IMG/VR virus record: IMGVR_UViG_2778261064_000005
Location: 1-14,318 of that record
Source of the DNA: a virus
Taxonomy: Duplodnaviria; Heunggongvirae; Uroviricota; Caudoviricetes
Length of the DNA stretch: 14,318 nucleotides
Strand: one strand, 5' to 3'
In this document: one piece after another, positions 8,276-10,643 of the stretch
How positions within the stretch are numbered: position 1 is the stretch's first letter
Layout: every line of letters starts with the position of its first letter
Translations under genes and position numbers: made by a program
The notes under the pieces: model-generated
What the model saw: the letters and a program-made list of their open reading frames with translations, nothing else
What the model was told of the DNA's origin: nothing
Database searches by the model: none

Positions 8276-9585
8276 GAGAGGCGGGCTGGACCAGCCTGTT
8301 TCAGGCGGTGGCTGAGCCCTTTTCCGGCGCCTGGCAGCAGGGCGTGAAAGCCGATCCGGAAGCCGTCCTCTCCTTTCATGCGGTGTTTTCGTGCATTTCG
8401 CTGATATCCCAGGATATCGCCAAAATGCGGCTGCGTCTTATGCAGACGGATGCGCAGGGGATACGCAGGGAAACTCGCCGGGGGGATATTGCCCGCCTCT
8501 GTCGTCGTCCCAACGCCCAGCAGAACCGCATCCAGTTTTTTGAACTGTGGCTGAACGCCAAACTGCGTCACGGCAATACGGTGGTGCTGAAAATCCGTAA
8601 CTCCCGGGGGCAGATCAAAGAACTGCGCATTCTGGACTGGAGCCGGGTTGAACCACTGGTGGCGGATGACGGCGAAGTGTTCTACCGCATCACGCCGGAC
8701 CGGAACTGCGGGATCACTGAGGCGGTGACGGTGCCTGCCCGGGAAGTGATCCACGACCGGTTTAACTGTTTTTTTCATCCGCTTATAGGGTTGCCGCCGG
8801 TGTATGCCGCCGGGCTGGCCGCCACGCAGGGGCATCATATTCAGGAAAATTCGACGTATTTTTTCAGAAATGGCGGCATGCCGTCCGGGGTGATTGAGAT
8901 CCCCGGCAGTATTACGGAAGAAAATGCGAAAAAACTGAAGAGCAACTGGGACAGCGGGTATACCGGCGAAAATGCGGGGAAAACGGCCATTCTGAGCAAC
9001 GGGGCAAAATATAACCCCACGACGTTTTCACCGGTGGATGCGCAGACGGTGGAACAACTGAAGATGACCGCTGAAATTGTCTGTTCGGTGTTCCGTGTCC
9101 CGGCCTACAAGATTGGCGTGGGACAACCGCCTTCCAGTGACAACGTGGAGGCGCTGGAGCAGCAGTATTATTCCCAGTGCCTGCAGACGCTGATTGAGTC
9201 CATTGAACTGTTACTGGATGAGGCGCTGGAAACGGGGGAAAACGAGAGTACAGAATTTGATGTCACCACGCTGCTGAGAATGGACAGTGAGCGGCGCATG
9301 AAAACGCTGGGGGATGCGGTGAAAAATACGCTTCTCACGCCCAATGAGGCCCGTAAACGGGAGAACCTGCCGCCCCTGGCCGGCGGTGATGCACTGTATC
9401 TTCAGCAGCAGAACTACAGTCTGGAGGCACTGTCCCGTCGTGATGCCCGTGAGGATCCGTTCGCGTCGACCGGGAAAACGGCCTTAGCGCAACCGCCTGA
9501 CGGCGCATCTGACGGTAATAAGGCAATCAGTGAAACAGAGCATGATGCGGTGAAAGCGATGTTCAGGGGGATTCTGAAAAAATGA
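8221..9585 (+). CDS. Portal protein (HK97 family)
   Basis: 454 aa with portal-family conservation pattern (FFRNGGMPSGVIEIPG, NAGKTAILSNGAKY, acidic C-terminal region, LTPNEARKRENLPPLAGGD). GGAG about 10 nt upstream of ATG. Start not certain. Confidence 0.88.
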   Translation: MWNLLQRTRKNQKSGRDVREAGWTSLFQAVAEPFSGAWQQGVKADPEAVLSFHAVFSCISLISQDIAKMRLRLMQTDAQGIRRETRRGDIARLCRRPNAQQNRIQFFELWLNAKLRHGNTVVLKIRNSRGQIKELRILDWSRVEPLVADDGEVFYRITPDRNCGITEAVTVPAREVIHDRFNCFFHPLIGLPPVYAAGLAATQGHHIQENSTYFFRNGGMPSGVIEIPGSITEENAKKLKSNWDSGYTGENAGKTAILSNGAKYNPTTFSPVDAQTVEQLKMTAEIVCSVFRVPAYKIGVGQPPSSDNVEALEQQYYSQCLQTLIESIELLLDEALETGENESTEFDVTTLLRMDSERRMKTLGDAVKNTLLTPNEARKRENLPPLAGGDALYLQQQNYSLEALSRRDAREDPFASTGKTALAQPPDGASDGNKAISETEHDAVKAMFRGILKK

Positions 9586-10643
9586 ATGAACGTGAACTGT
9601 CCATTATTCGTGCCCTGGGAGAAGAATTCGCCACGGTGCTGGCGGATTTACAGCGCACATTTGAGGAGAAGATGAGCGCGCAGGCACAAGCGTTTGAAGA
9701 GAAACTGGCTTCCCTGTCCGCTCTGTTACAGAAGCATGTGACGGTGGATGAGGTTAGCCCTGTTCTGCAGGCGATGGTGGATGACGCAGTGGGGGCCATT
9801 CCGCTACCGCGTGATGGTCGCGATTATGATCCGGAAGTACTGAAGCAGGCGGTGAATGATGCGGTCGCGAAAATACCGGTGCCGGCAGACGGCAAAAGTA
9901 TCACCCCCGATGATGTGCGTCCGATGCTTGAGCAGATGGTGAAAGAGGCTGTAAGCCATATTCCTGTTCCGCGTGATGGTCGTGACTACGATCCGGAAGT
10001 ACTGAGGCAGGCGGTGAATGATGCGGTCGCAAATATTCCGCAGCCGGCGGACGGTAAAAGTCTCACCCCGGATGATGTGCGTCCGATGCTTGAGCAGATG
10101 GTGAAAGAGGCCGTAAGCCATATCCCTGCTCCGCGTGATGGTCGTGATTACGATCCGGAAGTACTGAAGCAGGCGGTTCTGGAGGCGGTGAATGCCCTTC
10201 CGGCTCCGCAGGACGGGCGTGATGCCACGGCACTGGAAGTGCTCCCCGCTATTGACGATCAAAAATCCTTTCCCCGGGGCACGTATGCCACACACCTGGG
10301 TGGACTCTGGCGGGCGTATGAAAAAACGCACGGGATGCGGGGATGGGAATGCCTGGTTGACGGGGTGGCGGATATCGACGTCAGCATGACGGATGAGCGG
10401 TTGTTCTCTGTGGTGATCCGGCAGAGCAGTGGCCAGTGTACGGAAAAAACATTTTCCCTGCCGGTGATGCTCTACCGCGGTGTGTTCAGAGCCGGTGAAA
10501 CCTACCACCCCGGCGATACGGTGACGTGGGGGGGCTCGCTGTGGCACTGCAACAGTATGACCGGTGATAAACCCGGAGAAGCTCATTCATCAGGCTGGAC
10601 CCTGGCTGCAAAACGTGGACGGGATGCAGGAGGCGGAAAATGA
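9582..10643 (+). CDS. Repeat-containing head-module protein of unknown function (coiled-coil N-term, 54-aa tandem repeats, Cys/Trp-containing C-terminal domain)
   Basis: Start overlaps portal stop (ATGA) and stop overlaps next gene start, so it is in the late operon. Protein has 2.6 copies of a 54-aa unit (IPxPRDGRDYDPEVLKQAVNDAVAxIPxPADGKSxTPDDVRPMLEQMVKEAVSH). No family recognised. Confidence 0.7.
   Translation: MNERELSIIRALGEEFATVLADLQRTFEEKMSAQAQAFEEKLASLSALLQKHVTVDEVSPVLQAMVDDAVGAIPLPRDGRDYDPEVLKQAVNDAVAKIPVPADGKSITPDDVRPMLEQMVKEAVSHIPVPRDGRDYDPEVLRQAVNDAVANIPQPADGKSLTPDDVRPMLEQMVKEAVSHIPAPRDGRDYDPEVLKQAVLEAVNALPAPQDGRDATALEVLPAIDDQKSFPRGTYATHLGGLWRAYEKTHGMRGWECLVDGVADIDVSMTDERLFSVVIRQSSGQCTEKTFSLPVMLYRGVFRAGETYHPGDTVTWGGSLWHCNSMTGDKPGEAHSSGWTLAAKRGRDAGGGK
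9770..10220 (+). repeat. 162-bp in-frame tandem repeat (about 2.6 copies) inside the 353-aa ORF
   Basis: ccgcgtgatggtcg... unit recurs at 9807, 9969 and 10131 (period 162 bp) with more than 90 percent identity between copies; partial degenerate copies flank. Confidence 0.9.

Follow-up and report, generated by a model that had tools for sequence, protein, structure and literature searches.

A fibre-like protein encoded between the portal and connector genes of a lambdoid Escherichia coli prophage

Accessory fibres that occur in low copy number at the head-tail junction have been described for phage T4, in the form of the fibritin whiskers, and for lactococcal phages, whose neck passage structure carries carbohydrate-binding modules (CBMs) and collagen-like repeats. 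Phage phi29 has a trimeric head fibre, gp8.5, with a shaft built of repeating short helix-turn-helix units. Here, we analysed a stretch of 14,318 nucleotides from a virus of the Caudoviricetes (IMG/VR record IMGVR_UViG_2778261064_000005, positions 1 to 14,318; hereafter the window), which is the late region of a lambdoid, Shiga-toxin-type Escherichia coli prophage with an HK97-type head. Directly 3' of the portal gene lies an open reading frame (ORF) on the + strand for a protein of 353 amino acids (aa), called X throughout. We lean towards X being an accessory fibre of the portal vertex or neck that is present in few copies and is probably a trimer. Our confidence in this general statement is a little better than even, and it is lower for the exact location. 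The portal gene, X and the connector gene, together with the parts of X and the two gene junctions, are placed as follows (pI, isoelectric point; pLDDT, predicted local distance difference test).

8221..9585, + strand: HK97-family portal gene, 454 aa, with the C-terminus ...KAMFRGILKK before the stop codon; PF04860 (Phage_portal), E 1.6e-80
9566..9570, + strand: tract of five G (G5) at the 3' end of the portal gene; an allele with six (G6) fuses portal and X in one ORF; from DNA comparison
9582..9585, + strand: ATGA, overlap of the X start codon and the portal stop codon; from the sequence
9582..10643, + strand: X, fibre-like portal-linked protein, 353 aa, PHROG 1289 family; ORF with ATG start and profile match
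9588..9737, + strand: long N-terminal helix, residues 3-52, a putative docking or oligomerisation segment; AlphaFold2 pLDDT 80-90
9738..10211, + strand: acidic repeat region, residues 53-210, pI 4.4; opens with a 23-residue helix segment that is followed by units of helix plus linker
9807..10177, + strand: 162-bp tandem repeat array inside the repeat region; Tandem Repeats Finder, 2.3 copies, 91% matches, score 630
10212..10616, + strand: conserved all-beta C-terminal domain, residues 211-345; two CBM5/12-like modules, ~230-262 and 297-345
10640..10643, + strand: ATGA, overlap of the connector start codon and the X stop codon; GGAGG six bases upstream
10640..10966, + strand: head-tail connector gene (gp6-like adaptor); PF05135 (Phage_connect_1), E 7.8e-08

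An initial annotation of this DNA, made from the letters alone, had described a translationally coupled ORF of this size with a portal gene upstream and a connector gene downstream. The ATGA overlaps at both ends of X, and the profile matches of the flanking ORFs to Phage_portal and Phage_connect_1, confirmed this arrangement. An ORF on the opposite strand (9804-10586, - strand, 260 aa) was considered as a gene and rejected. The corresponding open stretches in relatives range from 81 to 277 aa, and because its length is not conserved the antisense ORF is probably spurious, a by-product of codon composition.

Architecture, repeats and family of X

The structure of X was predicted as a monomer with AlphaFold2 from an alignment of 35 sequences. 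The model consists of the long N-terminal helix, a spacer of six short helices with 12-residue linkers between them, modelled at low confidence, and an all-beta C-terminal domain (~residues 220-345), which reached a pLDDT of ~95 in the full-length model and a mean pLDDT of 91.4 when modelled by itself. This agrees with the order of N-terminal anchor, repeat shaft and distal domain that had been read from the sequence. The start MNERELS is kept in enterobacterial relatives, and conservation among E. coli copies extends over the first ~27 residues. The C-terminal domain, which had been pointed out for its Cys and Trp residues, has three of the former and five of the latter, and W255 and W339 are invariant or nearly so in relatives. 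The protein as a whole has a pI of 4.9.

In the predicted model, the C-terminal domain has the fold of CBM5/12 modules. Its structure matches in BFVD were phage collagen-repeat, CBM5/12 and ChiC_BD proteins, and the predicted fold also resembles phage fibre pieces. Hits of X in the PDB were designed helical repeats, that is, compositional matches, and a search of NCBIfam gave only a sub-threshold match to QatB.

The first two repeat copies are 90.1% identical in DNA and 90.7% identical in protein, and the third covers ~31 of the 54 residues of the unit, so that the earlier count of 2.6 copies with a 162-bp period is right at the protein level. Each 54-aa unit is composed of two related half-units of ~25-29 aa, each with a short helix and a P-x-DG-[RK]-[DS] linker. 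This motif occurs six times in X, and the sixth opens the C-terminal domain at residue 209. At least four consecutive Gly-X-Y triplets were found in 65 of 149 representatives of the X family, and at least six in 38 of them. In some members, for example P0265, such runs replace the helical repeats, and the P-x-DG-[RK]-[DS] linkers look like remnants of Gly-X-Y triplets.

No family had been recognised for X at the outset, and this did not hold. X matched phrog_1289 over its full length (E 6.1e-178, residues 1-353 on profile positions 1-331) and the final 212 of the 859 positions of phrog_2271 (E 8e-251), and Pfam PF28083 is present in its relatives. The family is very large. Grouped at 50% identity, it has 5,610 clusters when matches with E of at most 1e-3 are counted and 633 when the limit is set at 1e-30. 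It is already contained in PHROGs and Pfam but is uncharacterised. Most members are 240-560 aa long within a full span of 167-862 aa. The shortest homologues (167-201 aa) contain little beyond the N-terminal helix and the C-terminal domain. Relatives of 650-860 aa were considered as independent portal fusions, but none of them has a portal domain and they have just extra repeats. Two distant relatives with very long X homologues of 862 and 781 aa (L157:5294-8183 and L160:4472-9475, respectively) have modification-type genes 3' of X and not a connector gene. These genes are MptE/Maf-like, hexapeptide acyltransferase, methyltransferase, GT8-like, CCP_MauG-like and radical SAM/SPASM genes, and the set could be a glycosylation or modification cassette that acts on the fibre or the capsid.

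Among close relatives, X is 245, 353, 407, 461, 515 or 569 aa long, in 54-aa steps, with some additional steps of 26/27 residues and a few truncated copies. The copy-number variation that had been predicted from the near-identical repeats was thus found, and the series indicates that the repeats are real and recombining. They are not an assembly artefact, because the same in-frame series is present both in complete genomes and in genomes of the Sanger era. The closest relatives share 88-97% DNA identity and comprise long-tailed converting phages for Stx1a, Stx2c and Stx2a as well as numerous E. coli prophages. When 5,426 complete E. coli genomes were searched, the sequence was present in 1,247, at 9,293 places in total and a median of four per genome.

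Linkage to the portal gene and the place of X in the virion

The gene order was compared with that of 15 enterobacterial relatives, in which the portals are ~67% identical and the X proteins 49-58% identical to those of the window. Portal, X and connector were three ORFs with the same 4-base ATGA overlaps in all 15. We then scanned genomes, taking one per bacterial species and counting loci with upstream DNA. A separate portal ORF (445-531 aa) was located directly 5' of the X homologue at all 41 loci, and a connector gene directly 3' of it at 35 of them. The hosts were Enterobacterales, Pseudomonas, Burkholderiales and many Alphaproteobacteria, thus covering Gamma-, Beta- and Alphaproteobacteria. 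The same separate-portal arrangement was present in five of five metagenomic relatives, which had been picked for unusual length. The three comparisons together show that the split, coupled arrangement is ancestral and general. X is an independent gene and not a broken-off piece of the portal gene.

The ratio of nonsynonymous to synonymous substitution rates (dN/dS) among E. coli copies was 0.12-0.16 for the C-terminal domain of X, 0.13 for the 3' end of the portal gene and 0.41 for the N-terminal 72 codons of X. These values indicate that X is under purifying selection, and its frame has stayed open. The N-terminal segment is the most diverged part of the module and assorts independently of both flanks. 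Across the three proteobacterial classes, conservation of the C-terminal domain equals that of the portal and exceeds that of the connector.

Based on these results, we propose how X may work. It would be translated by termination-reinitiation at the portal stop codon within ATGA, in low amounts comparable to those of the portal, and this coupling to a 12-copy protein argues for a low copy number of X. Since X is always linked to the portal gene, its partner is likely to be found at the portal vertex, and the conserved N-terminal helix would dock X at or near this site. The collagen-like relatives suggest that X forms trimers. The acidic spacer, with short helices on Pro/Gly-rich linkers, may serve as a flexible fibre or tether, and its length would be altered by unequal recombination between the 162-bp repeats. 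At its end, the C-terminal domain with two CBM5/12-like modules may bind a glycan. Candidate ligands are GlcNAc-containing polymers, peptidoglycan and mucin-type sugars, and as the domain is conserved the ligand should be conserved too. X would then serve a long-tailed phage as an accessory adhesin located at its head-tail junction. The major tail protein (12108-12893) has an Ig-like domain at its C-terminus (PF13895, residues 182-256), which is a second accessory adhesion-type module of the same phage and was counted in favour of this proposal.

Several observations weigh against it. The degree of conservation of the C-terminal domain, at the level of the portal, is unusual for a host-surface binder and argues against a fast-evolving host-range tip. 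The G6 allele of phage 2851, a fused 859-aa portal-X gene, ties X to the C-terminus of the portal, and in the solved portals of P22, SPP1 and T4 the C-terminus faces the capsid interior. The match to CBM5/12 (PF02839) missed the gathering threshold of 26.2 bits, with 18.6 bits for the whole of X and 22.0 bits for the C-terminal domain alone, and the fold scores are modest for modules as small as these. The repeat region was predicted as a monomer and its model is of low confidence, and there is no Gly-X-Y run in the X of the window. Sequence and profile searches of the PDB with X gave no solved homologue, and a search of the literature gave no virion proteomics or structure for its phage group.

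A broader version of the proposal is put forward only tentatively. The X family may be an unrecognised class of portal-vertex appendages in HK97-like temperate phages across the Proteobacteria, long-tailed Stx1a/Stx2c phages included. In such a class, ~12 chains would be anchored to the portal or adaptor, and length-tunable tethers of helix or collagen repeats would hold out the conserved tandem CBM5/12-like domain towards a glycan that is itself conserved.

The alternative that survives best, although we consider it unlikely, is that X is an internal head protein on the portal crown, perhaps ejected with the DNA, whose CBM-like domain binds periplasmic peptidoglycan. Its position would then compare with that of SPP1 gp7, Mu gpF, the P22 portal barrel or the ejection proteins of podoviruses. 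In SPP1-like and Mu-like phages the gene slot after the portal gene encodes portal-bound internal proteins, and the in-frame portal-X fusion of phage 2851 occurs naturally. That the fusion is tolerated suggests that the N-terminus of X is normally near the C-terminus of the portal, which would place X inside the head. A C-terminal domain conserved like a core protein would suit a universal ligand such as peptidoglycan, and a chain of short helices with one small domain could traverse the tail tube. In contrast, exposed fibres are where collagen-like repeats and CBM5/12 modules are typically found, X is strongly acidic, and profile searches found no similarity to the Mu F or gp7 families. Moreover, long-tailed phages normally cross the envelope by means of the tape measure protein, and X fused to the portal would not be ejectable unless cleaved. 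The fused allele also retains the ATG of X, and a separate X could still be made from it. To our knowledge, an internal protein tethered to the portal crown that binds peptidoglycan would be as unprecedented for a long-tailed phage as the tentative class of portal-vertex appendages.

A second alternative, for which we see a low probability, is that X is a capsid-wide decoration protein or head fibre of the phi29 gp8.5 or T4 Hoc type and not a component of the portal vertex. The helix-linker repeats recall the helix-turn-helix supercoil of the phi29 head fibres, and the gene is situated within the head module. However, its strict linkage is with the portal gene and not with the capsid gene, low expression is to be expected from the coupling to a 12-copy protein, and neither a sequence match nor a fold match to gp8.5 or Hoc was found. 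The initial annotation had likened X to a fibre or decoration protein. The fibre-like part of that suggestion was strengthened by the CBM5/12-like domain, the resemblance to phage fibre pieces and the relatives with Gly-X-Y runs, whereas decoration of the whole capsid is disfavoured.

The junction between the portal gene and X

With the G5 tract of the window, the portal reads FRGILKK and then stops. Many database proteins consist instead of a portal domain joined to X via the junction FRGDTEKMTERELS, and a sixth G is the sole difference in these fused forms. We counted 75 occurrences of the junction motif, in 73 IMG/VR stretches and two E. coli loci. Thirty-nine were G6 and 36 were G5, one of the latter being followed by unrelated downstream sequence. 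When unique haplotypes of ±300 bp around the junction were compared, 26 were G5 and 18 were G6, and all more divergent haplotypes were G5. The inducible phage BP-4795 is G5 and split, and Salmonella phage FSL SP-016 is also split. Phage 2851, which carries the fused gene, is said to be inducible and to lysogenise laboratory strains. The fusion goes back to a single inserted base and is limited to one clade of E. coli. The G-tract was also considered as a fast phase-variation switch, which was rejected as its state mostly follows the haplotype, with few discordances (L049, L035, L070 and L071).

In the 15 enterobacterial relatives, the portal ends with ...KAM[LI]RG[LF]L.K (motif RG[LI]L.K) directly before the stop codon. 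This matches the KAMFRGILKK end of the window at the amino-acid level, indicating that it is the short frame that is under selection. Many of these relatives have a stop codon in the X frame right before the ATG, and none has the G-run.

Another explanation of the junction is a programmed -1 frameshift at G5 (9566-9570) or at a run of six A (A6; 9577-9582), by which a minor portal-X fusion would be made beside the short portal. Homopolymer runs just 5' of the stop codon, a -1 frame that is open from 9555 and an AGGGGG motif upstream are in line with such an event, but the downstream RNA structure was not significant (fold z = -1.16), and distant relatives have neither run, with many of them carrying an X-frame stop directly before the ATG. 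The A6 site was rejected, since the A-run is missing in the E. coli locus L001 and the fused forms actually differ from the split ones in having G6 in place of G5. Overall, a programmed frameshift is very improbable.

The two RefSeq loci that we inspected (strains C325 and O26 11368) are annotated by the Prokaryotic Genome Annotation Pipeline (PGAP) as a single portal pseudogene, "phage portal protein, frameshifted". This reading, in which a frameshift has inactivated a single portal gene and left X as its dead 3' part, can draw on those annotations and on the existence of full-length fused proteins, but it is hardly tenable given that the split form is found throughout, apart from one clade of E. 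coli, that the short portal C-terminus is conserved in amino acids, that the more divergent haplotypes are without exception G5, and that X is open, under purifying selection and without a match to PF04860. The "frameshifted pseudogene" flag is very likely wrong and appears to be an artefact of the fused allele serving as the reference.

The name "portal protein" has followed the same path. It is attached to the region under X in RefSeq genomes, to the second ORF in RefSeq phage records and to both PHROGs. ORF59 of BP-4795 is a "hypothetical protein" in AJ556162.1 and a "portal protein" in RefSeq NC_004813.1, which shows the name spreading from the fused allele, and the PHROGs took the name over from the 859-aa fusion of phage 2851. 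X does not belong to the HK97 portal family. It has no PF04860 match, its reading frame in the window is not that of the portal domain, and it is fused to the portal only in the E. coli G6 allele.

In the Sakai strain, prophages Sp6, Sp9 and Sp12 were scored as "Portal: defective" (PMC2669165). The portal/X split was considered as the cause of these calls and dropped, since an Sp10-type prophage is split yet was scored as intact. In a prophage of Enterobacter bugandensis (L176:2047-3395), the portal gene itself is broken into pieces of 128 aa and 317 aa, and this looks like a genuine disruption, unlike the boundary between portal and X.

Neighbouring genes and comparison with known systems

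The window begins with genes for a holin, a DUF1327 protein, a lysozyme and Rz, followed by an HNH endonuclease and the small and large terminase subunits. Inside the lysis cassette, the lysozyme and Rz genes are separated by an antirepressor-like gene (P22_AR_N/ORF11CD3) at 1505-2074. The 3' part of the small terminase gene has a 27-bp tandem repeat at 4230-4283 (two copies, 77% matches) with a Lys/Ala-rich product. Then follow a 645-aa protease-capsid fusion, a 73-aa ORF, the portal gene, X and the head-tail connector gene, and 3' of the connector a head closure protein, a gp10-like protein and a tail completion protein. The right part encodes the Ig-tagged major tail protein, a tail chaperone and the tape measure protein.

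The order terminase, capsid, portal is unusual for a head module. In the major capsid protein (6072-8009, 645 aa), an S78 prohead protease (residues 48-153) is fused to an HK97-type capsid domain (residues 386-635). The two domains are connected by a coiled-coil stretch, and a separate scaffold gene is absent. The 73-aa ORF between the capsid and portal genes (8054-8275) has no family match and overlaps the start of the portal gene by 55 bases. RefSeq relatives have it as the conserved hypothetical protein WP_001063025.1.

For annotation, a consequence is that calls of prophage intactness that count the split portal/X layout as a defect are probably wrong. A family of 5,610 clusters, situated beside the portal gene in every relative examined, has been mislabelled and has no assigned role. 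The predicted fold of X suggests that it binds a glycan, and the repeats allow its length to be tuned. Stx1a and Stx2c converting phages with long tails are among the carriers, and an accessory adhesin of the kind that we propose could affect adsorption, gut persistence or host range.

Lastly, X was compared with proteins of known structure or function. The predicted fold of the C-terminal domain is similar to the binding domains of the chitinases ChiB, ChiC and ChiA1 and to the cellulose-binding domain of EGZ. In contrast to these CBM5/12 domains, X combines two modules within a single domain of 135 residues that has an additional beta sheet, and its score is under the Pfam gathering threshold. 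Glycan binding by X is putative. Members of PHROG 1289/2271 are named "portal protein", with no function recorded for these PHROGs, whereas X is a full-length member of phrog_1289 without a portal domain. The genes of SPP1 gp7 and Mu gpF, like X, directly follow the portal gene, and the fusion of X to the portal C-terminus recalls the C-terminal barrel of the P22 portal. X has no homology to gp7 or gpF and differs from them in being acidic and repeat-rich and in carrying a CBM-like domain. The phi29 head fibre gp8.5 was not matched by X in sequence and fold searches of the PDB, and it binds capsid hexamers and is encoded beside the capsid gene. The fibritin whiskers and the lactococcal neck passage structure, which are fibres of the type proposed for X, have no sequence or fold match to it, and their genes are not beside the portal gene. 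By analogy and not by homology, X would work most like the collar and neck fibres, the phi29 head fibres and the accessory appendages that bear CBMs.

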